Shown piece by piece: positions 1,841 through 28,568 of a stretch of DNA of 64,000 nt. Under the pieces are notes generated by a model. It did no database searches and was not told the DNA's origin. It was given only the letters and a program-made list of their open reading frames with translations. The DNA comes from Pseudomonadota bacterium. Its GTDB lineage: Bacteria; Pseudomonadota; Alphaproteobacteria; UBA11222. The DNA lies in NCBI GenBank assembly GCA_049323435.1, contig JBMOMX010000035.1, forward strand, positions 10,357-74,356, written 5' to 3'. Both the position numbers and the translations under genes were made by a program. The stretch's first letter is position 1. The number at the start of each line of letters is the position of its first letter.

Positions 1841-3607
1841 TCACCGCTCCAGCACATACAGGCCCGGCGCATCGCCCAGAGGCGCATAACCCTTTTGCGG
1901 CGCGCCCATTTGCGGCGAACTTACTCTATACCCGGAATGCCGGATCAGCCAGTCCTGCCAGCATAGCCACCAGGAGCCTTCCTGGCGCGGTGTCGCCTGC
2001 TGCCAGCGATCCGGATTTACATAGTTTTCGTCATCTTTTTGCGTCGATATCTGATAATGCTGCCCTGGCTGGCCCGGCGGGTTGACGATGCCCGCATTAT
2101 GGCCGCCATTCGACAGCACAAAGGTTACATCAGAACCAGTGAGCATCTGGATTTTGTAAACAGAACGCCAGGGCGCAACCTGATCCCCGATCGTACTCAC
2201 CGCGAAGATCGGAACCCGTATATCGCGCAGCGATACGGGCCGTCCGTCACACTCATAACGGCCCTCAACCAGATCATTGTCAAGAAACAGATGCCGCAGA
2301 TAGCCCGAATGCATATGAAAAGGCAGGCGCGTTGCATCGGCATTCCAGGCCATAAGATCGTTCATCGGCCGCCGCTGGCCCATCAGATAGGTTTTCACCA
2401 GCGCGGACCAGATCAGATCGTTCGAGCGCAAAAGCTGAAACGCGCCCGCCATCTGGCGCGTGTCGAGATACCCCTGTTCGGCCATCATATCCTCCAGAAA
2501 GCTGACCTGCGCATCGTCAATGAACAGCATCAGCTCTCCGGCCTCGGTGAAATCCGTCTGTGCGGCGAACAGCGTCAGGCTCTGAAGGCGGTCATCCGCA
2601 TCCCTGGCCATGGCGGCGGCGGTAATGGCGAGCAGCGTGCCGCCAATGCAATATCCGGCGGCGTGTATCTTCTGGCCGGGAACGATAGCCGAGATGGCGT
2701 CCAGCGCGGCCATGACGCCAAGCCTGCGGTAATCAACCATGCCCAGATCGCGGTCAGCGCCGGTGGGGTTCTTCCAGGAAATCATAAAAACCGTATGGCC
2801 TTTTTCCGTCAGATATTTTACCAGCGAATTTTCCGGAGAAAGATCGAGGATATAATATTTCATGATCCAGGCGGGGGTGATGAGAATCGGCTCCGCATGC
2901 ACGGTGTCCGCCGCCGGGGCATATTGAATCAGTTCGATCAGCCGGTTGCGGAGCACCACCTTGCCGGGCGTGACCGCCACATTGCGGCCAACCTGAAAGG
3001 CTTCCGCGCCAGCCGGCGGTGCGCCATTCACGGCCCGGCGCCAGTCTTCCCACAAATTGCGTGCGCCAATGACAAAATTCATTCCGCCCTGCCGGATGGT
3101 TTCCTCCAGTATTTCCGGATTTGTCAGCGGGAAATTCATTGGGGAAAGCATGTCAAGCAACTGACGCGCGGTAAAGGCGGTCACATCTTCATGGTGCCGG
3201 GAAACCCCGTCAACCCCTATGGTGGCGTTGTGCCACCATTGCTGCGTCAGCAGAAACCCCTGAGATATGGCGGCGAAGGGCTGTTTGCGCCACGCCTCGC
3301 CGGTGAAGCGGTTGTCAAATGGCAGCGGTTCAATGCATGGTGCGCAGGCAGGATCCGAACTGGCGCGCAGGCAATAGTCGGCGAAGCGCATCGATTTGCG
3401 CAAGGCCTTTATGGCAAGCAGGGCCTGCTTGTCAGGCGATAACAGCAGATGCTGCGCCCAGTCCGTATAGGCCTGCGCCAATGCGGCGGGCGAAATCCCG
3501 GCCGTAAATAACGCCGTGGCGGCGTGCAGCGGACGGTCGAAGGAAAAGGGCAGCCGCTCCGGCGGCTCTTTCCCCAACTGGTTTAATGACGGTGCTCGTT
3601 TTGCCAT
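1841..3607 (-). CDS. phaC: Class I poly(3-hydroxyalkanoate) synthase
   Basis: 588 aa, a typical class I length. Lipase-box GYCIGG is present and the alpha/beta-hydrolase core is conserved. It ends only 37 nt from the start of the acyl-CoA synthetase gene. Confidence 0.93.
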   Translation of the reverse strand: MAKRAPSLNQLGKEPPERLPFSFDRPLHAATALFTAGISPAALAQAYTDWAQHLLLSPDKQALLAIKALRKSMRFADYCLRASSDPACAPCIEPLPFDNRFTGEAWRKQPFAAISQGFLLTQQWWHNATIGVDGVSRHHEDVTAFTARQLLDMLSPMNFPLTNPEILEETIRQGGMNFVIGARNLWEDWRRAVNGAPPAGAEAFQVGRNVAVTPGKVVLRNRLIELIQYAPAADTVHAEPILITPAWIMKYYILDLSPENSLVKYLTEKGHTVFMISWKNPTGADRDLGMVDYRRLGVMAALDAISAIVPGQKIHAAGYCIGGTLLAITAAAMARDADDRLQSLTLFAAQTDFTEAGELMLFIDDAQVSFLEDMMAEQGYLDTRQMAGAFQLLRSNDLIWSALVKTYLMGQRRPMNDLMAWNADATRLPFHMHSGYLRHLFLDNDLVEGRYECDGRPVSLRDIRVPIFAVSTIGDQVAPWRSVYKIQMLTGSDVTFVLSNGGHNAGIVNPPGQPGQHYQISTQKDDENYVNPDRWQQATPRQEGSWWLCWQDWLIRHSGYRVSSPQMGAPQKGYAPLGDAPGLYVLER

Positions 3608-3694
3608 GTCTGATTATAATGTCTAACTTAGCTACGCTTGCAAACGCGGGGACGCAACGGCTGCCCGTAAATACACTGCGCGATCATTTGCGGG

Positions 3695-4285
3695 TCAGCG
3701 CTTTCTGCCACGCGCAGCAGATTTGGAAACAGTGGATGTGCGTTTACCAGCGCCCGTTTTAAGCAATGCCCGGACCTTTTTATTTTTCACCGGCGCGTCA
3801 TCATCATCATCATCATCATCCGTTTCCTCATCGGATGACGCCACATGTAATGTGAACTCTTTCGTTGCATCCGCTATGGCCGTCTCAGCCGCAGTATCGG
3901 CTCTCGCGGCCATATCGCGGACCATGGCCTGGCCACGCTCTTGCAGCCTTTGCGTCAGCTCCAGCCAGCTCCGGGTTTGCCCGGAGAAGCTCTCCATTAT
4001 GTCCGATACAATATTGGATTGGACGTCGATCAGATCCTGCGGCTTGCGCGCGCTGAACAGATCCTGAAAGTAACGCACGCTCCGTTCGCTGGCGGCTTTC
4101 AGCGCCTCGGTCTGGCGGGCCGATGCGTCCTGAACAAGCTTGCTCATATCCGCATTGTGCGCCTGAAATTTTCCGAAAAGGGATTCCATTTCGGATGTAT
4201 TGAAAATGCCGGACTGACCCCAGAAGGCACGCAAGCCGTTAAAGGGATTCATTGCCGCCGGGATGATTTCTGATGGTGCAGTCAT
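3695..4285 (-). CDS. Phasin (PHA granule-associated protein) with a poly-Asp and Lys-rich C-terminal tail
   Basis: The ORF runs to 4339, but AGGGAG sits 7 nt before the ATG at 4285 (MTAPSEIIPAAMNPF...). The body is a helical phasin-type sequence. It ends DDDDDDDD...KNKKVRALLKTGAGKRTSTVSKSAARGRKR. It lies next to phaC. Confidence 0.78.
   Translation of the reverse strand: MTAPSEIIPAAMNPFNGLRAFWGQSGIFNTSEMESLFGKFQAHNADMSKLVQDASARQTEALKAASERSVRYFQDLFSARKPQDLIDVQSNIVSDIMESFSGQTRSWLELTQRLQERGQAMVRDMAARADTAAETAIADATKEFTLHVASSDEETDDDDDDDDAPVKNKKVRALLKTGAGKRTSTVSKSAARGRKR
3798..3820. repeat. (TCA/ATC)7-8 trinucleotide microsatellite encoding the poly-Asp run of the phasin
   Basis: Plus strand reads gtcatcatcatcatcatcatcatcc. 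On the coding (minus) strand this is GAT repeats that give D8. Confidence 0.9.
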
Positions 4286-4425
4286 GATTCGTGCTCCCTG
4301 GTTATAGTTTACGCTTTGTAAGCTTAATGATCCGATCACGGAGCAATAATTTCATTGCCCCTGAATGATGCGAAAATCCTACCGCGCCATCGTGACGTAT
4401 TCGTGACAGGCGCGAATTTTTTCCG

Positions 4426-5436
4426 CTAAAGCAGCAGACTTGCAGTGATAATAAAACTCATTATTGAGAACGTGTCCTGAAGCACGGTGGCGACAGGACC
4501 AGAGCCAAGCGCGGGATCATATCCAAGCCGCGCGAACAGCCACGGCAGCAGAAAACCAATGGAGGTGGCGACGCTGCATGCAATAACCAGTGCTATCGCA
4601 ACAGACGCGCCCAGCGCCAGGCTGCCAAAACCCAGCCAGACCAGCGGCAAAGCCAGCGCCCCTAATGTTACGCCAATCACAATGCCGGTTCCGATCTCGC
4701 CCAGCAATAACTGCCCCATCCGGGCTTGTGTCAGTGACAGGCTTCGCACCGCAACCGATTCCGTCTGTGTTCCGACGGCGTCAGCGAGATAGACAATTGC
4801 GGGAATGAAGAAGGTAATTGCGATATGCGCCGCAAGCAGCGTCTCGAATTGCGATATCATGAGTGTCGCCAGGGCGCTGCCCGCCATACCGGCAAGCAGC
4901 CATGGCAATCTGTACCAGGCGCGCCGGAACGGCGGCGCCGTCAACGCCGCCTGCGCCGCCTCGGATTTTCCCATGATGCCAACAATATGATGCAGATCCT
5001 CAAGATGCTCATCACGCAGGATCAGCATCAGCGCCGCAGCCGGCACGGCGCCAATAAGGCGGCCATTCGCGTCGCAAACCGCCAGCGATGTGGCGTCTGC
5101 GCGGATCGCCAGGCTGGCGGCCAGTTCGCGATCCGTCTGAGGCGAAACGACATGGCTATTGGCAGGGAACATCAGCGCACTGATTATCTTGCTGGAAGGC
5201 GCCGCCAGAAGATCCGTAAGCTTGGCGACGCCCAGCAGCTTTTGGTCTTTATCGATGACAAAAACATGCGATGCATCGGCATAGCGCTGGCCCATAAGCC
5301 GCCCGCGCGCATCGGCGGCGCTTTCATCAGGCCCCGAAATGGGAATATCACGCACAATATAGCGCGCAACGGTTTGAGGATGCGGTGTTTCGTCCGGGGA
5401 GACAATGTCCACCATATTTTCAGACGCTGCTGTCAT
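4426..5436 (-). CDS. MgtE-family Mg2+/divalent-cation transporter, short form (CBS pair plus MgtE membrane domain, no MgtE_N)
   Basis: 336 aa. A CBS-pair region (VFVIDKDQKLLGV..., AVCDANGRLIGAV) is followed by five hydrophobic helices typical of the MgtE transmembrane domain. Confidence 0.82.
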   Translation of the reverse strand: MTAASENMVDIVSPDETPHPQTVARYIVRDIPISGPDESAADARGRLMGQRYADASHVFVIDKDQKLLGVAKLTDLLAAPSSKIISALMFPANSHVVSPQTDRELAASLAIRADATSLAVCDANGRLIGAVPAAALMLILRDEHLEDLHHIVGIMGKSEAAQAALTAPPFRRAWYRLPWLLAGMAGSALATLMISQFETLLAAHIAITFFIPAIVYLADAVGTQTESVAVRSLSLTQARMGQLLLGEIGTGIVIGVTLGALALPLVWLGFGSLALGASVAIALVIACSVATSIGFLLPWLFARLGYDPALGSGPVATVLQDTFSIMSFIITASLLL

Positions 5437-5547
5437 GGCTCACGCGCCACCTTTCATAGAGCCAATGGGGTGGCTTCACCACTATTGCGCCGGTTGATAG
5501 CGCGCCTTCAGGCAGGCTGCTTAAGCAAACTGCATCCTCTCGGAAGC

Positions 5548-5640
5548 GTACCCCCTCCCAACCTCCCCCTTTCAGGGGGAGGAGTCATTCGCCGCAGCGT
5601 CCCCTCCCCTTGGAAAGGGGGGGGGACAGGGAGGGGATCA
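5548..5640. repeat. Compound GC-rich palindromic intergenic element, copy 1
   Basis: Hairpin cctccccctttcagggggagg at 5562-5582 has a 9-bp stem. A second G/C hairpin, cccctcccc...ggaggggatc, follows, and the two are nested inside outer inverted arms. The 21-nt core is identical to the one at 31241-31261. Translation gives the artefactual PFQGEG peptide. Confidence 0.8.
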
Positions 5641-5688
5641 ACGGCACACAAGAAAGCAAGCCGTGTATCAAGCTGATCACAAAATGCT

Positions 5689-6054
5689 CTAGGCGATAGC
5701 CCCAATCAATGCCAGCGCCGACCGCTCGATAATCTTCTCGAGAACGAAGCCCCCGACCAGGCGGGTCGCAATCCTGCCTGTCTCCGAGATCACGTCTGTC
5801 TGCGCCTGCGGCACACCGCCTTCTGGCGTAACGATATTGTGGCCACGCAAATGATCCAGCAGGCCATTATGGCAGATCAGGCGCATATCATAGGTAATCT
5901 TAATGCTGCCGGTAACCGTGCTGGCCTCAACCGTTTTAACACCCTGTAATGCGGAGAGGGTTTCGCACACACGGCCCGCCAACCACTCATCGCGCTTGAT
6001 GGCGTCGCTGCGTACCCTCAGCCGGCCCGGAACATGATGCAGATAATGGACCAC
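5689..6054 (-). CDS. Hypothetical protein with an HMA-like fold lacking CxxC (HxVPGRxRxR motif), paralogue A
   Basis: GTG start with AGGAG 7 nt upstream. It opens VHYLHHVPGRLRVRSD...GVKTVEASTVTGSIKITYD. The predicted b-a-b-b-a-b order matches heavy-metal-associated domains, but Arg residues replace the metal-binding cysteines. The same motif occurs in ORF 6906-7427 and at the N-terminus of the ATPase at 12148. Confidence 0.65.
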   Translation of the reverse strand: MVHYLHHVPGRLRVRSDAIKRDEWLAGRVCETLSALQGVKTVEASTVTGSIKITYDMRLICHNGLLDHLRGHNIVTPEGGVPQAQTDVISETGRIATRLVGGFVLEKIIERSALALIGAIA

Positions 6055-6265
6055 GGTTGCTCCTGTGGTGGTTTAAGTCACGATCCCTCTATGTCAAAAA
6101 TATTTCAGTTTCAGTGTTGGTTTTATGAAGAAATGGTGACGGGCAAAGTGCCGTGGATGCAGCGCAAGCAATAATCCGGCCTTCTCCGATCTGACTGAAT
6201 TGCCGGATTCAATCAGATCGGATATTCCGTATTAGCGGCATGCGCCTGTCTGTGCCGGGTCGTTG

Positions 6266-6913
6266 TTACAGCACGCCATCACGTGGAGGTTGCGGTTTAC
6301 CCTCTGGCAGCAATGCGCCTGCTACACGCTTGACACCGCCCAGGACATTGACCAGCACGCTTTCCACTGCTGACACTGCCGTGTTGCTGATGCTTCCCGC
6401 CGCCTCAAGCGCGCCGTTCGCTGCCGATACGGCCAGATTGCCAACATTGCCGCCAATTTCAGCCGCCGCCTCGACCACGCCCTCCACAACGCGCTTGGCG
6501 ACCGTGCCGACATCGCCGCCAACTTCAGCCGTGCCCTTGACCGCAGTTTTAGCGAGTTCCGCAGCCGCGCCAATAAGATCGCCGCCAACATCACTGACGC
6601 CAAGAATGACGCCCTTGGCGACGCTCTTGGTGGACAGGACCAGTCCGGTGCCGACCTGCTCCGTGGCCTGGATGGTTCCATGGATCACGTCGCGGGCAAC
6701 CCCGAGTGTTTCGGATGTCACCGATTTAGCGGCATGCACCGTGTTGGTGACGGTGCTGCGCGCCAGCGCCACGATCTCAGCCTCGATTTGGTCGATACCG
6801 CGCAGGCTGTTCACGATACCGTCTTTGATCTTGAGGCCAGCCTCGCTGGCCGGCTGCGCGGTTTCATGCATTATCTCGGCTGCTGTTTCTTTAACATGTG
6901 GGGTCTTAACCAT
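6266..6913 (-). CDS. Hypothetical Gly/Ala/Val-rich protein with degenerate ~21-aa tandem repeats
   Basis: The ORF runs to 6994, but the ATG at 6913 has AAGGAG 7 nt upstream (MVKTPHVKE...). The repeats are SDVGGDLIGAAAELAKTAVKGT / AEVGGDVGTVAKRVVEGVVEAA / AEIGGNVGNLAVSAANGALEAA / GSISNTAVSAVESVLVNVLG. I see no recognisable family. Confidence 0.6.
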   Translation of the reverse strand: MVKTPHVKETAAEIMHETAQPASEAGLKIKDGIVNSLRGIDQIEAEIVALARSTVTNTVHAAKSVTSETLGVARDVIHGTIQATEQVGTGLVLSTKSVAKGVILGVSDVGGDLIGAAAELAKTAVKGTAEVGGDVGTVAKRVVEGVVEAAAEIGGNVGNLAVSAANGALEAAGSISNTAVSAVESVLVNVLGGVKRVAGALLPEGKPQPPRDGVL

Positions 6914-7427
6914 CTCTGTCTCCTTGCTGCTGATGTTTACGTTGTGCTTTCCTCCCCTCGCTTCCGCTTCTTTTAGGCGTGGCAACCGGGGCAATAGCCT
7001 CGATTTCCAGCGCCGCTTGATCTGTGTCCGCGTTCAACAGGCTGAACGCGTACCAGAAAAATGTTGCAGCCGGCGCAAGGACATTACCCTGCGCCAGCTG
7101 ATAAAGGCCAAGCCCGATCAATAGCGGCGGCAACAGGCTTCGCAGGTCCAGCGCCGCTATGTCCGTAGACGGTGCAGGCGGTTCCCCGCCAAGCCGGAAC
7201 AGGCCGTGTTGTTCGGCATAGCGCGTTATCGCTTCCGGCTCGGTGGTGTGAATGACCAGCACGCTTCCCGTCATAGGGTTTATTTCCACCGTCTGCACCA
7301 TCTCGCATTTCAACAGCTCCGCGCCTATATGGGCATAAAATTCCCGGTCCCCGCGCCGCGCCGCAATCCGGTAGCGCACTCTTCCAGGCACCTCATGCGT
7401 CAGCGCGGCGGCTGCATCGCCATTCAC
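6906..7427 (-). CDS. Hypothetical protein with an HMA-like fold lacking CxxC, paralogue B
   Basis: GTG start whose codon overlaps the upstream stop as GTGA. It opens ...THEVPGRVRYRIAARRGDREFYAHIGAELLKCEMVQTVEINPMTGSVLVIHT. The C-terminal half is hydrophobic and Pro/Leu-rich. Its stop overlaps the next gene's start by 8 nt. Confidence 0.62.
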   Translation of the reverse strand: MNGDAAAALTHEVPGRVRYRIAARRGDREFYAHIGAELLKCEMVQTVEINPMTGSVLVIHTTEPEAITRYAEQHGLFRLGGEPPAPSTDIAALDLRSLLPPLLIGLGLYQLAQGNVLAPAATFFWYAFSLLNADTDQAALEIEAIAPVATPKRSGSEGRKAQRKHQQQGDRDG

Positions 7428-7792
7428 TGGACCGATCCAGGAAAAATATTATCGGGCTCCTCAGCCGCGGGCTTCGCCGGCTGCTGCCGCGCCGCCTGGG
7501 GCGCCGCCGTGGCGGCCGTCGCTGTGGCTGTGGCGGCCGCCGCCGTCTGCCGCTCTTTCGCCAGTTCCGCATGCGCCTCAGCGGCTGTGTCTTCGATGAA
7601 CTCGCCAAGTTCCGCTGCGGCCTCCCGCCCGCGCTCGAACATCTCAATGCCGGTTTTGAGCAAGGTTTTTGCCACCGGCCGGGCAGCCCGCAGAACGACA
7701 GGAACGATCACCGGTCCCAATACCGCGACACCAAGGCCCACCGCCAAACCAACAACAACGTTTCGCTTCAACATCTCATCAATGATCATCAT
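7424..7792 (-). CDS. Hypothetical small membrane-anchored helical protein with an Ala/Thr low-complexity tail
   Basis: ATGATG start. One N-terminal transmembrane helix (VVVGLAVGLGVAVLGPVIVPVVL) is followed by a charged helical region, then AAAATATATAATAAPQAARQQPAKPAAEEP. Confidence 0.55.
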   Translation of the reverse strand: MMIIDEMLKRNVVVGLAVGLGVAVLGPVIVPVVLRAARPVAKTLLKTGIEMFERGREAAAELGEFIEDTAAEAHAELAKERQTAAAATATATAATAAPQAARQQPAKPAAEEPDNIFPGSVQ

Positions 7793-7916
7793 CTGTAACC
7801 GCCATTCCTTCTCTACTCTCTGCGTTTAGCGTTCGGCGGGGCCTAATTCTGGTTCAGTGATGACCGCCTTGCGCTACAAACTCATGTCAATCCGCCTTCC
7901 AGGCGGAGAAAAGTAT

Positions 7917-9116
7917 CTAATCCCGCAGCGCGGGCACCTTGTCGATGCGTTCCCACGGCAGCCCAATATCCATGCGGCCTATATGACCATATGCCGCAAG
8001 GCGGCTGTAGAAGCGGCCGCGAAACAAAGCCGGCAGGCGGCGCAGATTAAATTCCGCGATTATTCCGGCTGGCCGAAACTCGAATGCGGCCTGCAACCTT
8101 TTTGCGATCTCTTCGTCCGCAATACGGCCCGTGCCAAAAGTCTGCACGCGCAGGCTGACAGGTTGCGCCATGCCGATCGTGTAACTGAGTTGCAACTCGC
8201 ACTCCTCCGCAAGCCCGGCGGCAACGACATTCTTCGCCGCGTAGCGGGCGGCATAGGCGCTAATCCGGTCAATGCGCGATGGGTCCTTACCGCTCAGGGC
8301 CGCGCCGCTGTGGCGTGAATATTCGCCATAAGTGTCAATCGCATTTTTGCGGCCGGTAAGCCCCGCATGCATTTCCGGCCCGCCCGTGAATAGCAGGCCG
8401 CCGGGATTGACGAAAATGCGGGTGGCGTTATCGGGGCGGATTAATTCATCTTCAAAGACCGGCTTGACGGCAAGATCGACGAGGTTTGCCTCCAGCTCCT
8501 TTAACGAAGGGGCGTGCCGGGGATCAACCGCGGCTGTAATGGTAAGGCTGTGGATGCGATGCGGGCGCCGGTTGCGATACTCCACCGCAACCTGAATCTT
8601 GCCGTCAGGGGCGAGATAGCCAAGCTGACGGGTGAGGCGGACGGTTGCGATGCGCCGCGCCAGCTTGTGCGCAAGCCAGACCGGCAGGGGCATCAGCGCA
8701 GCGGTCTGGGTGCAGGCATAGCCGAACTGGGTTACCTGGTTATCGGCGGCAATTGCGTCAATGCCCGCATCGTCCAGCATGGTTTCGTCGATCTCGCGGT
8801 AGGCGCCGCCAACTTCGGTAAGACTGGTCATGATGTGGCAGTTCGCGGCCGTGAACCCGTCTTCGTCATCGCCATTGCCATAGCCCGCACGCCTTATTGC
8901 CTGACGGGCAACCATTGGCGCATCAATCGTGGCGCGCGATGCGAAACGCACGGCAAGGAAGAGGATGCCCTTCGCAACGGCGCATTCGGCGTCAAGCCGG
9001 GAAAACGGGTCGGCAAGCAGATAACTGTCGAGGATCGAATCGCTGATCTGGTCGCACAGCTTGTCCGGATGCCCTTCGGTTACGGATTCGGATGTGAAGA
9101 CAAAATCTTCCATCAT
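7917..9116 (-). CDS. metK: S-adenosylmethionine synthetase, a divergent MetK paralogue
   Basis: The ORF extends to 9305, but the MetK N-terminus MMEDFVFTSESVTEGHPDK begins at 9116, giving 399 aa. The conserved blocks are altered: GGGAFSGKD is replaced by HSGAALSGKD, and DQGxMFGYA by DNQVTQFGYA. The ATGATGG start overlaps the ATPase TGA stop. Confidence 0.85.
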   Translation of the reverse strand: MMEDFVFTSESVTEGHPDKLCDQISDSILDSYLLADPFSRLDAECAVAKGILFLAVRFASRATIDAPMVARQAIRRAGYGNGDDEDGFTAANCHIMTSLTEVGGAYREIDETMLDDAGIDAIAADNQVTQFGYACTQTAALMPLPVWLAHKLARRIATVRLTRQLGYLAPDGKIQVAVEYRNRRPHRIHSLTITAAVDPRHAPSLKELEANLVDLAVKPVFEDELIRPDNATRIFVNPGGLLFTGGPEMHAGLTGRKNAIDTYGEYSRHSGAALSGKDPSRIDRISAYAARYAAKNVVAAGLAEECELQLSYTIGMAQPVSLRVQTFGTGRIADEEIAKRLQAAFEFRPAGIIAEFNLRRLPALFRGRFYSRLAAYGHIGRMDIGLPWERIDKVPALRD

Positions 9117-12100
9117 GCGCCTCCATCCGGATTTGCGGCTTGCGCCCGCAGCCGCGCGCCCTTGATGGTCTCGTTGACAAGCAGCGAACCTGCGGCAGCC
9201 GCGCCCGCCACGGCGTAATCCGCCAGTCCAAGCGCATCCAGCCCAAGCAGGCGGCGCGTTACAGGGAATAATGCGGCGAGCCCCTGCAACCCCAGCAGAC
9301 CCCATACCGCCTGGTTGAGACGCGGATTGGGCGGCAGCGCATTACGCTCGAAGATGGTGTGGCGCGGCGATCGGGCGGAGAGGGCATGCAGTAATTGCCC
9401 GGCGGCAAGCGTGATAAAGGCCACACCGCCAGCCGCCGGGCCAGCGCCATAGCGGGCGGCGCCATACAGATAGGCGGCCAGCCCGCCCGCGCTAAGCACC
9501 GCGCCTTCAATGCCGATGCGCCGGAACTCTTCTGCGGTAATCAGGGGTTCCCGCGGATCGCGCGGCGGGTCTTTGAGCACGTCCGGCTCGGGCGGTTCCA
9601 GCCCCAGCGCCAGCGCCGGGAAAATGTCCGAAACCAGATTGATCCACAATAGCTGCACCGGCGTAAGCGGCTGACCGAGACCAAGGCCGACCGCCCCCAG
9701 CATGACAAAGATTTCACTGGAATTGGTGGCGAGCAGGTAATGGATCGCCTTGCGGATGTTAGCGTAAATGGTCCGCCCCTGACCAAGCGCGACCAGCATG
9801 CTTTGAAGCCGGTCGTCCTCAAGGATCACATCGGCTACTTCGCGCGCCACATCGGTGCCGCTCTGGCCCATGGTCACTCCAATATCGGCCGCGCGCAGCG
9901 CAGGCCCGTCATTGATGCCATCACCCGTCATGGCCACAATATTGCCGTTGCGTTGCAGCGCCTGCACGATCTGCAATTTGTTCGCCGGGCTGACACGGGC
10001 GAACACATGCGTGCGCTGCGCCAGCCCCGCCAGCAATCCGGGATCAAGTCTGTCAAGATCAACGCCTTCAAGAATTTCCACAGGCTGGCCCTGAGAGAGA
10101 TCAAGCTCCCTGGCGATAGCGAAGGCCGTCGCACCCTGGTCACCTGTAATGATAATGGTGCGCAGGCCCGCATCATGGAAGTCCCGCATCAGCGCCGCCA
10201 TGCCGGGGCGCGTCGGATCGGCAAGGCCAGCCAGGCCCAGCCAGGAAAATGCGCCGGGATCCTGGGCATCGCCCTGGCGGGTTGCAAAGCCGAGCACCCG
10301 CAGGCCGCGCCCAGCCATTGCCTGGTTCAGTGCCTGGATGCGCAGCACATCCTCTTCGTCAAGCGGCCGCTCCGCGCCGCCATCAAAAAAGGCCGTGCAT
10401 AATTGCAGCACTTCGTCCGGGCTGCCTTTGACGGCCGTGAACGGGCAGCCATCCTCGCCTGCATGGCTGGTCATCATGAAACGATGCTGTTCCGTGCGCC
10501 GGTCCATATTGAGCATCGGGCGCTGTGCGCGCAATTGCCGCACATCGATGCCCGCAGACATGGCAAGTTCTATCAGCGCGGTTTCGGTCGGCGAACCCTT
10601 CAGCGAGACGTCTTCGTCCTCAGCGATCTCGACTTCGCTGCACAAGACGCAGGTTTCCAGCAGCCTGCGCAGTTCATCGTTTGCAGATGCGCTAGCCCCG
10701 GAATGGTTGCGCTGAATCTGACCGTCCGCGATCTCGAAGATTTCGCGGGCATTCGCGACCGCCACGGCGCTCATGCGGTTGAGCGTTAGCGTGCCTGTCT
10801 TGTCGAGGCATACGGTGCTGACGGCGCCAAGGGTTTCAACAGCATCCAGGCGGCGGATGAGAACGTTATGCGTCCGCATGGTGCGGATGCCCAGCGCCAG
10901 CGTCACCGTTGCGACTGTCGGCAGGCCTTCGGGCACCGCAGCAACGGCCAGCGAGACGCTGCTTCGGAGCATTTGCAACATTCCAAAGCCGCGCAGCAGA
11001 CCCAGCGAGAAAACCAGCCCACAGGCGCCCAGGCTGAGCCAGACCAACTGTTTGCCCATGATATCGAGCTGATGCTGCATGGGCGTTTCCGGCGGCCGTG
11101 CATCGCCCACCAGGGATTGAATATGGCCAAGTTCGGTGCGTTCCGCCGTCGCCGTCGCCGCCGCCAGGCCGGAGCCGCCCGTAACCGCGGTTCCCTTGAA
11201 CACCATATTTGCGCGATCGCCCAGCGCTGTCCCGGCGCTGGCGATGGCGGTAGCGCTCTTGACCGAGGGCATGCTTTCACCGGTAAGCGCGGATTCATCA
11301 ATTGTGAGATCCTTTGCCTCAATGACCCGCGCATCGCAGGCGATAAGCGTGCCCGGAACAAGCTTCAGCATATCGCCCGGAACGATGTCACAGGACGCGA
11401 CCTCGCAAACACCGCCGTCGCGCAGCACCAGCGGCGCAGCGGGCACAAGCCGGCCGAGCGCTTCAATGGTGTGCTCCGCCTCGGACTCGGAACGATAGCC
11501 AATGGCGGAATTTAGCGCCACGACCGCGAGAATAACCACTGCGTCCGCAAGCCCCCCGGTCGCAACCGACAGCGCCGCCGATCCGAGCAGCAAAAGCGAG
11601 GGCAAGCTGTTGACCTGGCCAAGCAGAATTTCAAGCGCGCTGCGGCGCGGCATTTGCGGCAGCGCATTCGGCCCGTAGCGCGCCAGCCGCAGCGCGGCCT
11701 CGCTGCTGGAAAGGCCTTGCTCCGGCTGTGTCTCCAGCCGCTGCAACACCTGCTCCCTGCTCAGCGTATGGGGCGGGGCATCCCCCGGGACGGCGTCTGG
11801 CATGCCGCTATCCTCGCGCTTCCTGCCTGCGGGGAAGGGAACGACATTTGGCGCCGGCTTTGGTTCGCCGATGTCCGCCGCGCCGGAATCGAGCATGGCC
11901 GCCACAGCCTGGATTATTGTGTCAACGGATCGCGCAGGATCAAAATGCACCAGCAGATTGCCGGTGCGGATATTTGCGGCGGCGGCGCGAATGCCGCTGC
12001 GCCCCGGAAGCCGATGCTCCAGCATCTGCGCAACCCCGGTATTGCGGTCAAGGCCAACCACTTTCAGGCGTGCGCGGCCGCTGACCGCGACATGCAGCGG

Positions 12101-12148
12101 TACGACGCCTGCAAGCGATGCGGCCATTGACGCCACGCTCATGACCAT
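9113..12148 (-). CDS. Cation-transporting P-type ATPase, P2 (Ca2+-ATPase-like) type, with an extra ~128-aa HMA-like N-terminal domain
   Basis: 1011 aa. It carries DKTGTLT, PEGLP, KGSPDEVL, TGDGINDGPAL and GVTMGQSGTDVAREVADVIL, and a Cation_ATPase_N helix (LSSSEAALRLARYGPNALPQ) at about residues 130-165. Ahead of that helix lies ...PLHVAVSGRARLKVVGL...TGNLLVHFD. Confidence 0.9.
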   Translation of the reverse strand: MVMSVASMAASLAGVVPLHVAVSGRARLKVVGLDRNTGVAQMLEHRLPGRSGIRAAAANIRTGNLLVHFDPARSVDTIIQAVAAMLDSGAADIGEPKPAPNVVPFPAGRKREDSGMPDAVPGDAPPHTLSREQVLQRLETQPEQGLSSSEAALRLARYGPNALPQMPRRSALEILLGQVNSLPSLLLLGSAALSVATGGLADAVVILAVVALNSAIGYRSESEAEHTIEALGRLVPAAPLVLRDGGVCEVASCDIVPGDMLKLVPGTLIACDARVIEAKDLTIDESALTGESMPSVKSATAIASAGTALGDRANMVFKGTAVTGGSGLAAATATAERTELGHIQSLVGDARPPETPMQHQLDIMGKQLVWLSLGACGLVFSLGLLRGFGMLQMLRSSVSLAVAAVPEGLPTVATVTLALGIRTMRTHNVLIRRLDAVETLGAVSTVCLDKTGTLTLNRMSAVAVANAREIFEIADGQIQRNHSGASASANDELRRLLETCVLCSEVEIAEDEDVSLKGSPTETALIELAMSAGIDVRQLRAQRPMLNMDRRTEQHRFMMTSHAGEDGCPFTAVKGSPDEVLQLCTAFFDGGAERPLDEEDVLRIQALNQAMAGRGLRVLGFATRQGDAQDPGAFSWLGLAGLADPTRPGMAALMRDFHDAGLRTIIITGDQGATAFAIARELDLSQGQPVEILEGVDLDRLDPGLLAGLAQRTHVFARVSPANKLQIVQALQRNGNIVAMTGDGINDGPALRAADIGVTMGQSGTDVAREVADVILEDDRLQSMLVALGQGRTIYANIRKAIHYLLATNSSEIFVMLGAVGLGLGQPLTPVQLLWINLVSDIFPALALGLEPPEPDVLKDPPRDPREPLITAEEFRRIGIEGAVLSAGGLAAYLYGAARYGAGPAAGGVAFITLAAGQLLHALSARSPRHTIFERNALPPNPRLNQAVWGLLGLQGLAALFPVTRRLLGLDALGLADYAVAGAAAAGSLLVNETIKGARLRAQAANPDGGA

Positions 12149-12636
12149 CCACCCCAGTCTGCCTTAGCGCGCAGGAAAAGAGGTAAAACCAGGCCGGTAC
12201 AGTAAGGCAGCTGCTCTATCACCGGTAAATCCTGAATTGCACAATATTGCGCTCCACATTTCCCGCGTCCGGCGGGCGGCGAGAATGGCCGCGGGACCAA
12301 ATCGCTCGAACGGGTATTCTCGCTCCCCAGCCAGAATGGTGCGGAAGCTGCCGCAGTTGACTTGATCGAGATCAAATTTGCGATGACATGTTGATTAAGT
12401 TTTTATTACAGCCTGGATCAGCATCACTTTGCCGCGCAGACGGCGCAAAGAAATGGTTCTGGCTTAGGTTTGGAGAATGGCGTCTGCGGGGAGGAGAGAT
12501 GGCTGCTATCTATCGCGGCCTCAAAATAAATATTTCAGGAAAAAACACGCTAAAAATAACGCTGCGAGATGCCAGCCCCGGCGCCGTTTTTCCCCGGTTT
12601 CATCCCATGCGCTGTAACGTCTGGCTGGCGGATTGC

Positions 12637-13947
12637 CTATTCCTTGCTGATCAGAACCGTTTCGACATGATGGTCGCGCATGCCTTCGACAATGAAGCGG
12701 TAGGCGCCATCGGTGATCATGTCCCCTTCCACCGGAATACGTTCCAGCCGGTGCATGAACAGGCCGGACAATGTATTCACATTGACCGGCTCGCCGGGAA
12801 TGTAACCGGTTTCACGCTCGACATCGGCCAGTGACGCCAGGCCATGCGCCTTCCATCCGGCGTCTGTTTCGGTGATCGGAAATTCCGAAATATTTTCGTC
12901 CGTTTCATCGGCGATTTCGCCGACAATTTCTTCCAGCAGATCTTCAATCGTCACCAGGCCGGCAAAAGTGCCATATTCATCCAGAATGCAGGCCATATGC
13001 GCCTTTTTAACCCGCATCATTTCAAACAAGGTGGAAACCTTGAGCGATTCCGTAACCACCAGCGGCTCACGGCAATGGATGCGCAAATCTTTCCAGGGCT
13101 CGGGCCCGCCCGAAAGCAGGGTGTCCACAATATCCTTCATCAGAATCATGCCGATAAGACTGTCGCCGCTGCCATCGACAAGCGGAAAACGCGAATGGCG
13201 CGTGTCTTTCATAATGGCCAGGTTGGACTCCGGCGGCTGATCCAGCCGCAGCAGATCACACTTCATCCGCGGGATCATGACCTGGCCCACTGTGCGTTCG
13301 TTGAACCGGAACAGGTTCTGGATCATCTCCGCGGTGTCAAGGTGCAATTCGCCATGCTCGGCCGATGTCGTCACCAGGCCGCGAAATTCCGTATTGGTCA
13401 GCACATCCATATGGCTGGCCTCCTCGACGCCGAACAGGCCAAGCATGCCCCGTGACGCCCGGTTAAGCCCCCAATGCAAGGGATAGGACAGCAGATAAAA
13501 AATCCGCAATGGAATGGCGCAGAACAATGAAAGCGCCTCGGGCTTGCGGATGGCGAAGGTTTTCGGCACCTGTTCTCCCACGACGATATGCAGCGACGAA
13601 AAGACAGTGAAGCCGATCAGAAACGAAATCGTATGCAATGCCGGCTGGCTCAGTTCGAACGGCGCCAGCAGCGGCTCGATCAGCGCCGCCACCGCTGGTT
13701 CGCCCACCCAGCCCAAACCAAGCGAAGCCATGGTGATGCCAAGCTGACAGGCCGCCAGATAGGCTTCGAGCTCCTCCTGTATTTTAAGGGTCAGTTTAGC
13801 CGAAAAACTGCCCGTGCTGGCCATGCTTTCAATACGAAATCCCCTCGCTTTCACCAGTGCGAATTCCGCCGCCACAAAAAATGCATTGGCGGCCAGCAGC
13901 ACCAGTACGGCGATCAGACTTACCGAAATTTCCTCGCTCGTCAGCAT
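12637..13947 (-). CDS. HlyC/CorC (CNNM) family transporter: DUF21, CBS pair and CorC_HlyC domains
   Basis: 436 aa. It has the N-terminal four-TM DUF21 region, CBS domains and the C-terminal CorC domain. Confidence 0.9.
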   Translation of the reverse strand: MLTSEEISVSLIAVLVLLAANAFFVAAEFALVKARGFRIESMASTGSFSAKLTLKIQEELEAYLAACQLGITMASLGLGWVGEPAVAALIEPLLAPFELSQPALHTISFLIGFTVFSSLHIVVGEQVPKTFAIRKPEALSLFCAIPLRIFYLLSYPLHWGLNRASRGMLGLFGVEEASHMDVLTNTEFRGLVTTSAEHGELHLDTAEMIQNLFRFNERTVGQVMIPRMKCDLLRLDQPPESNLAIMKDTRHSRFPLVDGSGDSLIGMILMKDIVDTLLSGGPEPWKDLRIHCREPLVVTESLKVSTLFEMMRVKKAHMACILDEYGTFAGLVTIEDLLEEIVGEIADETDENISEFPITETDAGWKAHGLASLADVERETGYIPGEPVNVNTLSGLFMHRLERIPVEGDMITDGAYRFIVEGMRDHHVETVLISKE

Positions 13948-15582: not shown

Positions 15583-15658
<76 letters not shown>

Positions 15659-18516: not shown

Positions 18517-18593
18517 GCCGCCGTAGCTCAGTTGGTTAGAGCGCTTGATTGTGGATCAAGAGGCCCCTGGTTCGAATCCAGGCGGTGGTACCA
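18517..18593 (+). tRNA. tRNA-His(GTG), with no genome-encoded G-1
   Basis: GCCGCCGTAGCTCAGTTGGTTAGAGCGCTTGATTGTGGATCAAGAGGCCCCTGGTTCGAATCCAGGCGGTGGTACCA. The anticodon loop is TTGTGGA. Confidence 0.85.
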
Positions 18594-22222: not shown

Positions 22223-25200
22223 TTACTTGTTCAGCAGATCGCGCATCTGGCGGTTGACGAAGGCCAGTTTGGCGACGCTGATGGTTCCGGCCCACATGCC
22301 TTCAATCAGCCGCACCGTGCGGGCCACTGCCTGTGCATGCTGTGTGCACCAAAGCGCCACTGCCTGCTGCGCGTCATGTCCTGCCCCGGCGCTTAACGCC
22401 TGGGCCGTCATCACCCGCTGCTGCCCGTAAAAATCATCAATCATGGCGTTCATCGCCAGGCGTTCCCAATGCCCCTGGGCCGGATTTTTTTCCGCCGCGC
22501 TGCACAGCCAGTCCAGATTCAGTTCCGCCCCTATGCGGTAAAAGGCTGCCGCCACATCGCCAATATCCCGGCCTGTGCTGCGCGCCACCTGCACCATATC
22601 CGCCGCTGCCCCCATCGGCGGCAGCGCCGCCGCCTGCCGGCTGATATCTTCGGGCGTGCCATCGGCCAGCAGGGCCTGCAAGCGTTCGTTGTATGCCTGC
22701 ATTTCCACCGGCGGCAGATGCAGATGGATTTCGCTGCGCAATTGCGCAATGCCCGGCTGATAGGCCGCGATAACCGCACTCATATCCATGGGTTGCGGCA
22801 CATTGCGCAAAAACCAGATGGCCGCGCGCCGGATCAGGTCGCGCCCATAAAGCTGGATGCGCGTCTGCACCCCTGCTGGCAGCCGGTTGTCCAGCGCTTC
22901 CAGCGCATGCCAGAATGCGCGCATATCAAAAGCTGCGCGCGCCACTACAAAGGCGCGTACAATTTCGGCAGTGGAATTTCCGGTTTCCTCGGCGATGGCG
23001 CTGACAAAACTGATGCCCGCCCGGTTGACAATCGAGTTGGCCAGCAGCGAAGCCATGATTTCACGGCGCAACTGATGCCCAAGCAATGCCTGTGGATATT
23101 TTTCGCGCAGCGGTTTGGGAAAATAACCCAGCAGATCGTCCCGCAAATATTCCGAATCGAGCAGGTCGCTGTCCAGCAGCTCCATCCGCATGCCATTTTT
23201 GGCATAGGCGACCAGCACCGCAATCTCCGGCCTTGTAAGGCCGGACCCCGCCTCCGCGCGTTCCGCCAGCGCCGCATCATCGGGCAGAAATTCGATGCTG
23301 CGGTTTAGCAGGCCGGCGCGTTCCTGTTCGCGGATAAAGCCCGCATGGGCGTCCAGCAGGCGATGCGCCTGCGCAGCCTCCAGGCTGATCGCCAGGGTCT
23401 GCTGATAATTATCGCGCAGTACCAGTTCGGCCACCTCATCGGTCATCGAGGCCAGCAGCTGATCGCGCTGCTTGCGCGGCAGATCGCCCGCGCGCACTTC
23501 AGGGCCAAGCGCGATCTTGATATTCACTTCATGATCAGAGCAATCGACGCCCGCCGAATTATCCACGGCGTCGGTATTGATCGCGCCGCCGGATTGCGCA
23601 TATTCAATGCGGCCCAATTGCGTGCAGCCAAGATTTGCGCCTTCGCCAATGACTTTGGCTTTCACCTTGCAGCCGTCAATGCGCACCGCGTCATTGGCCT
23701 TGTCGCCCACATCCAGATGGCTTTCGCGCGAGGATTTGAGATAGGTGCCGATGCCTCCGAAAAACAGCAGATCCGCCTCCGCCCCCAACAGCGCGTGGAT
23801 CAGTTCCTCCGGCGTGACCGCCGCCTGGCTCAGGCCGGTCATCTGCTGTATCTGCGGCGTCAGCGTGATGGATTTACGCGCACGGCTGAACACGCCGCCC
23901 CCGGCGCTGATCAGTTTTGGATCATAATCCGCCCAGGAAGAACGCGGCAGTTCAAACAGCCGCGCGCGTTCCTCAAAACTTTTTGCCGGATCGGGATCGG
24001 GATCAATGAAAATATCACGATGGTCGAACGCCGCCAGCAGCCGCGTCTGGCGCGATCGCAACATGCCATTGCCAAACACATCCCCCGACATATCGCCACA
24101 GCCGATAACGGTGAAGGGTTCGCTCTGAATATCTTTGCCGCGTTCGCGAAAATGGCGCTTCACCGCTTCCCATGCGCCGCGCGCCGTGATCGCCATTTTC
24201 TTATGGTCATAACCAACCGAGCCGCCCGAAGCAAAGGCGTCGTCAAGCCAGAACCCGTAAGATTGCGCCACGCCATTGGCGATGTCCGAAAAGCTGGCCG
24301 TGCCCTTGTCGGCGGCAACCACCAGATAGGGATCATCCCCGTCATAGCGCAGCACATTTTCCGGCGGCACGGCCTGGCCATCAACAATATTATCGGTCAG
24401 ATCCAGCAGTCCCGAGACAAACATCCGATAGGCGGCGATGCCTTCCTGCTGAATGGCGTCGCGCGTGCCGTTTTGGGGCAGCCGTTTGGGGAAAAACCCG
24501 CCTTTTGATCCAACCGGAATGATGACTGCGTTCTTCACCTGTTGCGCCTTGACCAGCCCCAGAATTTCGGTACGGAAATCCTCGCGCCGGTCGGACCAGC
24601 GCAGCCCGCCGCGCGCGACCTTGCCAAAACGCAGATGCACCCCTTCGACACGCGGCGCATAAACGAAAATTTCCACCATGGGGCGCGGCAGCGGTAAATC
24701 ATCCACGTGACGGCTGTCCAGCTTGAAAGAGAAATAGGGCTTGTCCATCCCGTCATGGGCGCGCTGATAAAAATTGGTGCGCAATGTGCTCTCGATCAGA
24801 TTCAGAAATCGCCGCAATATCCGGTCTTCATCAAGGCTTTCAACCGCATCAAGGGCCTGTGCGATCTGTTCGCGCAGTTGCGCGGCCTGAATGCCGCGGT
24901 CAGCCGGATAAGCCACATTAAAACGCGCATGAAACAGATCAATCATCTGGCGCACAATGGCGGGATTGGCGCTTAGCGCGCGCTCCATATAATCATTGCT
25001 GTACAGAATGCCCGCCTGGCGCAGATATTTGCCATAGGCGCGCATGACGGCCGCCTCGCGCCATTTCAGGCCGGCCGCCAGCACCAGCCGGTTATAGCCG
25101 TCACTCTCGGCGGCGCCGCGCCAGATTGCGCTGAACAATTCCTGAAGATTTTCACGCACAAGCCCAAGATCAACCGGACGGCCCTGTGCTTCCTGCATTT

Positions 25201-27058: not shown

Positions 27059-27218
27059 TACTGCCTTTTGCTGACGCCATTCCCCCAGGTGCGAAAAGTT
27101 ACCACTTGATATCTTTCAATTATCTTTCAAATTTTTGCCATTGTTTTTTATCCGCCAAGGATGGACACTTTGCGTCCGCAAACAGTTTCTGGCATCAAAA
27201 TCAAAAAGGGGTCGATAT

Positions 27219-28568
27219 ATGAACGTCGCAGCGAGCGATCTGGAAGTCTTTATGCAAGGTCTGATCCGCAGAAATCCTGGGGAAACCGAGTTTCATCAGG
27301 CCGTTCAGGAGGTTGCCGGCAGCATCATCCCGTTCATTCAGGACAAGCCCAAATATCTGAAAATGCGCATCCTGGAGCGGCTGGCCGAGCCCGACCGGGT
27401 GGTGATCTTCCGGGTCTGCTGGGAAGATGATCAGGGCAATATCCGTGTCAACCGGGGCTACCGGGTTCAGAACAGCAACGCCATCGGCCCCTATAAAGGC
27501 GGTATCCGCTTTCATCCAACTGTAACATTAAGCGTTCTTAAATTTCTGGCCTTTGAGCAAACCTTCAAAAACAGCCTGACCGGCCTGCCCATGGGCGGCG
27601 GCAAGGGCGGCTCGGACTTCAACCCCAAGGGCAAGTCGGATAATGAGGTGATGCGCTTCTGCCAGTCTTTCATGACCGAACTGCACCGCCATATCGGTGC
27701 GGATGTCGATGTTCCGGCGGGCGATATCGGCGTGGGCGGACGCGAGATCGGTTTCATGTTCGGCCAGTACAAGCGGCTGGAAAATATCTATACCGGCGTG
27801 CTGACCGGCAAGGGGCTGGAATATGGCGGCAGCCTGATCCGCACCGAGGCCACCGGCTATGGCGCGGTCTATATGATGGAAGATATGCTGACCCGCAACA
27901 AAAACGGCTTTGTCGGCAAAAAATGTCTGGTGTCGGGTTCAGGCAATGTTGCGCAATATGCCGCCGAAAAGCTGATCCAGCTGGGCGCGACGGTTTTGAC
28001 CCTGTCGGATTCGGATGGCTTTATTTATGACAAGAACGGCATCACCGCCGAAAAGCTGGCGCAGGTGATGGAAATCAAAAATGTCAAACGCGGCCGCATC
28101 GAGGAGGCCGCCAAAAAGATCGGCTGCGAATATTTTGCGGGCAAGCGGCCCTGGGCCGTGCCGTGCGATCTGGTGTTCCCCTGCGCCACGCAGAACGAAA
28201 TCAGCGGCGATGAAGCCAAACTGCTGCTCACGAACGGCTGTATCGGCGTGGCCGAAGGGGCCAATATGCCGACCGTGCAGGAAGGCATTGATGCGTTCCT
28301 GCATTCCAAAATCCTGTTCGCGCCGTCCAAGGCGGCGAATGCCGGCGGCGTGTCGGTGTCGGGCCTCGAAATGAGCCAGAACAGCGCGCGGCTTTCCTGG
28401 AAGGAAGAAGAGCTGCAAAAACTGCTGCGCGACGTGATGACCGGCATTCACGAACGCTGTGTGCAGTATGGCGAGGAAAAGGATGGCTATGTGAATTACC
28501 TCAAGGGCGCCAATATTGCAGGCTTCGTCAAGGTCGCCGACGCCATGCTCGCCTATGGCGTGGTGTGA
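27219..28568 (+). CDS. gdhA: NADP-specific glutamate dehydrogenase
   Basis: It has the KGGIRFHP and GGGKGG motifs. The Met at 27219 is preceded by AAAAAGGGG. The ORF opens at 27135. It is divergent from the large GDH. Confidence 0.9.
   Translation: MNVAASDLEVFMQGLIRRNPGETEFHQAVQEVAGSIIPFIQDKPKYLKMRILERLAEPDRVVIFRVCWEDDQGNIRVNRGYRVQNSNAIGPYKGGIRFHPTVTLSVLKFLAFEQTFKNSLTGLPMGGGKGGSDFNPKGKSDNEVMRFCQSFMTELHRHIGADVDVPAGDIGVGGREIGFMFGQYKRLENIYTGVLTGKGLEYGGSLIRTEATGYGAVYMMEDMLTRNKNGFVGKKCLVSGSGNVAQYAAEKLIQLGATVLTLSDSDGFIYDKNGITAEKLAQVMEIKNVKRGRIEEAAKKIGCEYFAGKRPWAVPCDLVFPCATQNEISGDEAKLLLTNGCIGVAEGANMPTVQEGIDAFLHSKILFAPSKAANAGGVSVSGLEMSQNSARLSWKEEELQKLLRDVMTGIHERCVQYGEEKDGYVNYLKGANIAGFVKVADAMLAYGVV

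Follow-up and report, generated by a model that had tools for sequence, protein, structure and literature searches.

S-adenosylmethionine (SAM) synthetase, MetK (EC 2.5.1.6), is among the most conserved enzymes and is usually treated as the product of a single-function housekeeping gene. The subject here is a MetK-like gene at positions 7917-9116 of a 64,000-nucleotide (nt) stretch of an alphaproteobacterial genome (lineage UBA11222; contig JBMOMX010000035.1, positions 10,357 to 74,356), which as a whole is referred to below as the window. The gene lies in a cassette of co-oriented genes, directly behind one for a cation-transporting P-type ATPase. To judge from the sequences compared, its product belongs to a family derived from MetK whose substrate pocket has been remodelled. 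The family is bound to a P2-type ATPase of the CoBaHMA type in all evaluable loci, is mis-annotated as MetK and is undescribed in the literature searched.

In human MAT2A, Glu70 and Asp258 bind the amino group of methionine or SAM, Gln113 binds the carboxylate, and Asp258 also contacts the ribose O3' (PMC6850014). These three residues correspond to E55, Q98 and D238 of Escherichia coli MetK (PMC8727953), whose literature numbering is used below unless stated otherwise. Synthesis and phosphatase activity are separable: MAT2A gating-loop and Arg264 mutants retain phosphatase activity at the wild-type level (PMC6850014), and patient mutations including Asp258Gly give lower SAM levels with phosphatase activity unaffected, according to the brief account of earlier work cited in PMC6850014.

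The reading frame at 7917-9116 runs on the minus strand and encodes a protein that is recognisably MetK throughout. The three Pfam S-AdoMet synthetase domains of the MetK fold (PF00438, PF02772 and PF02773; N-terminal, central and C-terminal) match the product of 399 amino acids (aa) with E = 2.7e-29, 4e-30 and 1.6e-54, and the top PDB matches in a Foldseek search with its AlphaFold2 model are all MetK (probability 1.0). In the NCBIfam scan, canonical metK is the sole model to match, the equivalog model TIGR01034 being passed narrowly (358.7 bits against a cut-off of 309.4). The NCBI entry, MFZ5836219.1, is named methionine adenosyltransferase and has 399 aa; other gene callers use the second of two ATG codons (398 aa). 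The GC content at third codon positions (GC3) is 0.69, like that of the neighbouring genes. The features that matter for the comparison are the following.

7917-9116, minus strand: MetK-family paralogue, 399 aa (398 aa counted from the second ATG)
9111-9116, minus strand: ATGATG start region over the ATPase stop TGA (9113-9115), as read from the sequence
9060-9074, minus strand: GHPDK block, canonical, residues 15-19; H16 and D18 are E. coli H14 and D16
8946-8948, minus strand: codon of R57, which stands where E55, the methionine amino-group ligand, was
8715-8744, minus strand: DNQVTQFGYA block, residues 125-134, with N126 for active-site D118 and V128 for G120
8367-8369, minus strand: codon of H250, which stands where D238, ligand of the methionine amino group and of the ribose O3', was
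8283-8336, minus strand: DTYGE...HSGAALSGKD loop, by motif alignment with G253→E, G258→S, G260→A, F262→L and K265 kept
8283-8312, minus strand: HSGAALSGKD within that loop, residues 269-278

The references for the alignment were solved MetKs and E. coli MetK, which aligned over its full length. The register against the latter is GAGDQGLMFGYA versus AADNQVTQFGYA, and therefore canonical D118 pairs with N126, the aspartate lying one position earlier. In this alignment the query keeps H14, D16, E42, D163, K165, R244, K245, K265 and D271, and it replaces both the ligands of the amino-acid part and much of their surroundings: E55→R, Q98→V, D118→N, G120→V, R229→L, F230→L, D238→H, G253→E, G258→S, G260→A, F262→L and K269→R. 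The canonical GAGDQG loop becomes AADNQV and HGGGAFSGKD becomes HSGAALSGKD, variants that are fixed in the family. Residues were counted in 181 non-identical full-length relatives. The retained residues are found in 181 (D16, E42, K245, K265, D271), 180 (H14, D163), 179 (R244) and 161 (K165) of them; the new residues are H238 and L262 in 181, R269 in 180, E253 in 178, S258 in 177, R55 in 174 and N118 in 167, and the position of Q98 is hydrophobic (L, M, V, I or F). Because the variant residues are conserved in 167-181 of the 181 relatives, they are, on this comparison, not chance. An earlier note on the window had taken the frame as real, without giving its strand, and had read the GHPDK block as canonical, the HSGAALSGKD and DNQVTQFGYA blocks as variants and the start as overlapping the ATPase stop, all of which is borne out. 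The most telling changes were absent from it: E55→R57, Q98→V, D238→H250 (GGPxGD to GGPEMH), G253→E265 (DTYGG to DTYGE) and K269→R281.

The pattern of loss and retention is uneven across the active site. As aligned, all contacts to the amino-acid part of the substrate are lost, with two acids turned into bases, and the triphosphate machinery is intact. The protein would thus still bind Mg-ATP and would carry out MetK-type chemistry at the triphosphate, through displacement at C5', hydrolysis of tripolyphosphate, or both. Its second-substrate pocket would have turned from acidic to basic and would most likely take an anionic or non-amino-acid ligand in place of L-methionine, because E55→R, D238→H and D118→N make the pocket more positive and only G253→E offsets them. 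Since the new pocket residues are near-invariant, a specific ligand is indicated rather than loss of function. That the protein still cleaves ATP, as an enzyme with another co-substrate, is a serious possibility, if one that stops just short of probable.

The same residues bear on a more conservative proposal, that of a SAM synthetase isozyme with a re-arranged methionine site, which would make SAM available locally or in particular circumstances, for example when oxygen is low. It would fit the TIGR01034 pass and the NCBI name; the new E253 together with R55 and R269 could hold the amino acid in another orientation, and archaeal methionine adenosyltransferases (MATs) bind SAM through other sets of residues (PMC8727953). 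Yet the three contacts to the amino-acid moiety are all replaced, two of them with opposite charge, and for Asp258Gly, which alters the human counterpart of D238, the short account that PMC6850014 gives cites lower SAM levels. Nor does any SAM-using enzyme recur in the cassette, and the additional metK genes that work for biosynthetic clusters on plasmids of Rhizobium and Mesorhizobium retain all canonical residues. An isozyme of this kind is decidedly unlikely.

The partner of the MetK-like gene is the pump encoded immediately upstream.

9113-12148, minus strand: P2-type (E1-E2) cation ATPase, 1011 aa, with the motifs TGES, PEGLP, DKTGT and TGDGxND

The N-terminus of the ATPase is a CoBaHMA/HMA_2-like domain, with a weak match to HMA_2. 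On the coding strand the junction of the two genes reads ATGATGG, the ATPase TGA lying at 9115-9113, so that the overlap is 4 nt from the first ATG or 1 nt from the second. Gene order was compared in 92 related loci, many of them on short contigs, of which the 76 with any upstream sequence are evaluable. The ATPase precedes the MetK-like gene on the same strand in all 76, at less than 400 nt from its start in 75 and at 422 nt in the last. The ATPase stop and the MetK-like start overlap in 46 of the 76 loci, by 4 nt in 41 and by 1 nt in five more. Related surroundings are also seen for two far-diverged members of the wider clade marked by H238: one (P0148) lies directly 3' of a P-type ATPase, and the other (P0150) comes after an 871-aa gene that has no annotation, with HMA_2 as a neighbour. 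Over 45 loci, the pairwise identities of the two proteins rise and fall together (r = 0.887, Mantel p = 0.001), with a median of 0.71 for the MetK-like protein and 0.58 for the ATPase. This shows the two to be co-inherited and, as the gene arrangement predicts, made from one transcript, mostly by way of the stop/start overlap.

Such tight one-to-one coupling, together with the co-divergence, would also suit a protein complex, in which the MetK-shaped protein is a non-catalytic or sensor subunit. Such a subunit would bind ATP, tripolyphosphate or some other anion and would regulate the ATPase or act as its scaffold, with no turnover of a second substrate. It agrees with this that no downstream enzyme using a product recurs nearby, and that K165, H14 or D271 is lost in some divergent members. 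The core family, however, keeps a near-invariant catalytic set, including the general acid His14 and both Mg ligands, which goes beyond what binding needs, and its MetK-like protein is more conserved than the pump it would serve (the medians given above). A purely regulatory subunit is unlikely, although it deserves to be kept in mind.

The family is large and is spread over many phyla. A search of 5.8 billion proteins found at least 120 relatives, with identities of 60-99%, in Manganitrophus, Brocadia, Nitrospirota, Hydrogenophilaceae and Dissulfurispiraceae, which are labelled methionine adenosyltransferase or S-adenosylmethionine synthetase. A motif-specific metagenome scan added 440 further members, and many of the metagenome loci apparently come from peat, wetland soil, groundwater and sediment (judged from sample codes); a scan of genome contigs, in which many canonical MetKs matched as well because they share the GHPDK pattern, gave at least nine paralogue loci among the matches listed. 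Members occur in Nitrospirota, Planctomycetota, Binatia, Thermodesulfobacteriota, Acidobacteriota, Cyanobacteria and the Alpha-, Beta- and Gammaproteobacteria, and include cultured Nitrosospira isolates. Among the Nitrosospira proteins are WP_258192703.1, encoded in a complete genome, WP_177191663.1 of strain Nsp14 and PTR14494.1 of strain Nsp2. The window's contig is part of a metagenome-assembled genome (MAG) of an uncultured organism, labelled "Pseudomonadota bacterium". An assignment to the Alphaproteobacteria agrees with its ribosomal protein S1, whose cluster, drawn at 90% identity or above, contains proteins of MAGs labelled "Alphaproteobacteria bacterium". An exhaustive search of 1.8 billion cluster representatives uncovered a wider clade of about 20 clusters at 50% identity, in which H238, L262 and R269 are common and positions 55, 118, 165 and 253 are more variable. 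Within this wider H238/L262/R269 clade, members among the sequences L036, L061, L010, L060 and P0150-P0168 have single catalytic residues gone (H14→N, K165→E/R/Q/T or D271→E).

A neighbour-joining tree separates 13 paralogues, including one Crocosphaera MAG, from 72 canonical MetKs, which include several cyanobacteria, Firmicutes and E. coli, with a bootstrap of 50/50. The median identity is 0.59 within the paralogue clade, 0.47 from it to canonical MetKs and 0.67 among the latter; identity to canonical bacterial enzymes is 38-46%. The cyanobacterial MetKs retrieved are all canonical except the Crocosphaera paralogue. Plasmids were considered as a source of proof that the paralogue is accessory, and this line was given up: all of the 189 plasmid MetKs matched are canonical, with at most 46% identity to the query, and none is a plasmid-borne copy of the paralogue. 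Two extra metK genes on Rhizobium and Mesorhizobium plasmids were inspected; their neighbours are a methyltransferase gene in one case and glyA with adenosine kinase in the other. Because these two keep every canonical residue, ordinary extra copies of metK are unlike the paralogue.

A further idea is that the gene is the organism's only MetK, a housekeeping enzyme that has evolved fast. In its favour, a tblastn search with E. coli MetK matched the paralogue only, both in the 64-kb window and in the 92 related loci, so no second metK was found there. Against the idea stand the replaced methionine ligands, the recurrence of the same signature in a monophyletic clade over many phyla, behind the same ATPase, and the presence in that clade of the Crocosphaera MAG and the Nitrosospira isolates; the other cyanobacterial MetKs retrieved are canonical. 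A divergent housekeeping MetK, one of the two options in the earlier note, is therefore highly improbable, and the refuting case named there, in which related alphaproteobacteria show these variants in their sole MetK, does not fit the cross-phylum, ATPase-bound distribution. The other option, a neofunctionalised enzyme dedicated to the operon, gains support at the family level from the monophyletic multi-phylum signature, the ATPase synteny in 75 of 76 loci (the 76th being the one at 422 nt) and the co-divergence, and the phylogeny that the note had proposed as a check places the paralogues apart.

An operon-dedicated paralogue is favoured because of this clade signature, the ATPase linkage, the co-divergence and the canonical residues of the extra metK genes on plasmids. 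Very probably, then, the gene represents a separate pump-linked family and not a housekeeping MetK. The fuller statement, that the family is an ancient MetK offshoot which is not the cell's SAM synthetase and acts as the dedicated partner of a CoBaHMA-bearing P2-type cation ATPase, is the best overall explanation and is, on balance, somewhat probable. Several observations pull the other way. (i) The AlphaFold2 model is moderate (mean pLDDT 71); its confidence is low for the loops of the active site, which lie at the dimer interface, and ligand modelling was ruled out because these loops are too uncertain. (ii) The conserved new acid E253 could rebuild an amino-acid site in another geometry, in which SAM synthesis would still be possible. 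(iii) K165 is replaced in 20 of the 181 members, and single divergent members show H14→N, K165→E/R or D271→E, so that catalysis may be dispensable in some lineages. (iv) The tblastn result described above yielded the paralogue alone. (v) The best NCBIfam models for the ATPase are the Ca-type pumps PMR1 and SERCA, all below their equivalog cut-offs, and because its scores fall under every such cut-off the pumped ion is not established.

Downstream of the MetK-like gene, on the same strand, lie the companions of the pair in the window, and one further transporter gene stands upstream of the ATPase.

7424-7792, minus strand: DUF5132 protein, 122 aa, with a hydrophobic N-terminus and homologues in related cassettes
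6906-7427, minus strand: CoBaHMA (HMA_2) protein, 173 aa, by domain match
6266-6913, minus strand: conserved protein of about 215 aa, repetitive, with faint phasin similarity (E = 0.3), in 28-46 related loci depending on method
5689-6054, minus strand: second small CoBaHMA (HMA_2) protein, 121 aa, by domain match
4426-5436, minus strand: MgtE-like divalent-cation channel by family match, with CBS and MgtE membrane domains and without the N-domain
12637-13947, minus strand: CNNM/CorC-family transporter upstream of the ATPase, in one of 92 related loci (L086), of uncertain cassette membership

Gene maps from Manganitrophus, Brocadia and one metagenome contig show the same core, namely DUF5132, HMA_2, the ~215-aa protein, the ATPase with its HMA_2 N-terminus and the MetK-like protein, and often add an MgtE-like channel, DUF3562 and more small HMA_2 proteins. 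The MgtE-like channel is also found in the cassettes of Brocadia, Methylocystis and Nitrosospira, and cultured Nitrosospira strains carry a full cassette of ATPase, MetK-like, HMA_2, MgtE-like and DUF445 proteins. Homologues of the CoBaHMA/HMA_2, DUF5132 and ~215-aa proteins occur in 38-53 of the 92 loci, many of which are on short contigs. De novo clustering of all cassette neighbours returns DUF3562, the ~215-aa protein, a zinc-ribbon protein, DUF5132 and response regulators as recurrent and, further, MgtE-like, ArsA-like, DUF445, PsiE-like and MntP-like proteins; it returns no other recurrent enzyme.

Some neighbours are more local. A class I polyhydroxyalkanoate (PHA) synthase gene and a phasin gene lie directly 3' of the cassette (window 1841-4339, minus strand). 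PHA synthase, phasin and CNNM were each rejected as cassette members, being present in one of the 92 loci (L086, a copy of the window's own locus). An ArsA/Get3-like ATPase stands beside the cassette in eight loci (for example L003 12005-13215 and L101 12346-13518), with an added ArsA_HSP20 domain protein in L003, and MntP-like (Mn efflux) and PsiE-like proteins are found in seven loci each. In the Nitrosospira isolates L168 and L169, a divergent B12-dependent metH (2736-6470, minus strand) adjoins the ATPase/MetK-like pair; this may be coincidence, and metH is absent from the other loci whose gene maps were read. Plus-strand frames at 6240-7124, 7206-7829 and 7857-8318 have high GC3 and run antisense to real minus-strand genes, those for the DUF5132, HMA_2, ~215-aa and MetK-like proteins. 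They were rejected as shadow frames, the first two having been scanned and found to match no family, and are what a length-based choice of genes would wrongly take.

The company of cation transporters lends some appeal to a simpler enzyme, a tripolyphosphatase or a hydrolase of ATP to adenosine and triphosphate, in which the methionine step is lost and triphosphate, pyrophosphate or phosphate serves as chelator or counter-ion for the pumped cation. Its setting would be the ATPase and the MgtE-like channel, with MntP-like or PsiE-like proteins in some loci. The triphosphate site is intact, and in MATs the phosphatase reaction does not depend on SAM formation and persists when the methionine site or the gating loop is mutated, as reported in PMC6850014 and in the earlier work it cites in outline. 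A plain phosphatase, on the other hand, has no need of near-invariant new pocket residues (H238 and L262 in 181 of 181, E253 in 178 of 181), and the protein has no obvious route to the lumen of a compartment. This simpler enzyme is about as improbable as the SAM synthetase isozyme.

With the dedicated pump partner as the favoured reading, the product or activity of the MetK-like enzyme would help the pump, together with the CoBaHMA, DUF5132 and MgtE-like proteins that accompany it, to handle a divalent cation (Ca2+, Mn2+ or Mg2+). Because no downstream enzyme recurs, the cassette suggests that the pump and the CoBaHMA proteins themselves make direct use of this product, or of a binding event. 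The regulation of the operon offers a hint of when it would be used.

12362-12375, strand not assigned: FNR/FixK-type palindrome TTGATCGAGATCAA, perfect, ~214 nt 5' of the ATPase start in a 490-nt gap

This is the sole perfect match within the 64 kb, where 0.05 is expected. A copy with one mismatch lies 5' of the ATPase region in locus L088 (position 1283), whose MetK-like C-terminal region is 91% identical. In the window's organism, the operon is thus probably switched on at low oxygen by a regulator of the FNR/FixK type. The box was rejected as a family-wide feature, since it is found in the window's lineage only. In another lineage, the divergent member L167 has a perfect TTGAT-N4-ATCAA box (2614-2627) where the 871-aa gene upstream ends, immediately ahead of the MetK-like start. 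As for riboswitches, Rfam found only two tRNAs in the window and nothing in seven cassette loci, and promoter and terminator scans of window 3500-12700 gave fewer sites than shuffled sequence.

Of the two tRNA genes, tRNA-Ala(CGC) (15583-15658, minus strand) lies ~430 nt beyond the gene for an acyl-CoA dehydrogenase that marks the upstream edge of the transporter block, and tRNA-His(GTG) (18517-18593, plus strand) lies further on; GC3 gives no sign of foreign origin. Elsewhere in the window, a 1611-aa frame (22223-27058, minus strand) with no NCBIfam match at E <= 1e-20 adjoins a gene for NADP-glutamate dehydrogenase (27135-28568), and two cytochrome P450 genes (33572-34840, minus strand; 38879-40129, plus strand) stand ~4 kb apart, far under all equivalog cut-offs.

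Taken further, these elements can be assembled into a concrete scheme, which is a long shot. The MetK-like enzyme would make a compound other than SAM from ATP, either a new product in which an anionic nucleophile carries a 5'-adenosyl group, or inorganic triphosphate in free form. This compound would be the ligand of the basic patch of the CoBaHMA domain or the counter-ion of the pumped metal, and the cassette would build or control an undescribed cation-storage compartment induced at low oxygen, with a logic akin to that of ferrosomes and of cyanobacterial calcium-carbonate inclusions.

Whatever its ligand, the family matters as a large natural set of proteins in which the residues of ATP chemistry are kept and the substrate pocket is swapped. 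If this is true, the MetK fold would have gained a novel reaction or a novel role in regulation, and the family would be a natural template for adenosyltransferase engineering. Automatic names follow the fold (methionine adenosyltransferase at NCBI, S-adenosylmethionine synthetase at JGI), and because pipelines label the family in this way, metabolic reconstructions that count the paralogue as SAM synthesis may be wrong. The CoBaHMA and DUF5132 companions are already candidates in bacterial intracellular calcium-carbonate formation, and the MetK-like protein would give that field a concrete enzyme. Experiments are feasible because cultured Nitrosospira strains carry the cassette.

The nearest relatives of the cassette in terms of its small proteins are found around calcyanin, the cyanobacterial marker of intracellular amorphous calcium carbonate, in which CoBaHMA (Pfam HMA_2, PF19991) was first found (PMC8890360). 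In Microcystis, genes for DUF5132 and CoBaHMA proteins flank ccyA, the calcyanin gene, and a Ca2+/H+ exchanger, with which they are co-expressed (bioRxiv 10.1101/2024.07.07.602159). The CoBaHMA domain is a proposed binder of anionic partners such as lipids. The window's cassette resembles the ccyA neighbourhood in its several CoBaHMA proteins, in the CoBaHMA domain that the pump carries and in DUF5132, and differs in its transporter, which is a P-type ATPase where the ccyA neighbourhood has the cax exchanger. No calcyanin (GlyZip) protein is among the recurrent cassette neighbours, no search having been aimed at GlyZip proteins, and the CoBaHMA and ccyA literature covered makes no mention of the MetK-like gene. 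Full-text searches returned no paper on the MetK-like family, within a coverage that does not extend to the principal study of CoBaHMA (Gaschignard et al. 2024, Proteins 92:776). A link of the cassette to biomineralisation would be an inference.

A second parallel in logic is with ferrosome clusters. The ferrosome (fez) system attributed to Grant et al. in 2022 is reportedly made up of a P1B-6 ATPase and small membrane proteins and forms an anaerobically induced iron-storage organelle. The two share the combination of a P-type ATPase with small membrane or amphipathic proteins, anoxic habitats and, in the window, a likely low-oxygen promoter. The ferrosome ATPase is of P1B type, whereas that of the window is P2, and the window's cassette, known here from genes alone, has no fez homologues. 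We know of no MetK-like gene in ferrosome clusters.

The extra metK genes situated in clusters, for example on plasmids of Streptomyces, Rhizobium and Mesorhizobium, likewise place a second MetK-family gene inside an accessory cluster. The two that were checked (Rhizobium and Mesorhizobium) have a canonical active site and sit beside SAM-using or one-carbon enzymes; the paralogue family does neither. With MetK itself the paralogue shares the three-domain fold, GHPDK, the K+ ligand E42, the Mg ligands D16 and D271 and the triphosphate ligands R244, K245 and K265. It departs from MetK in having arginine, a hydrophobic residue and histidine in place of the methionine/SAM ligands E55, Q98 and D238, in D118→N, F262→L, K269→R and a GGG loop turned into SGA, and in a longer gating loop and an insert of ~7 residues near the C-terminus. 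MetK and the paralogue are separated in phylogeny as well as in the active site, the paralogue forming its own clade and standing behind a P-type ATPase in all 76 evaluable loci.

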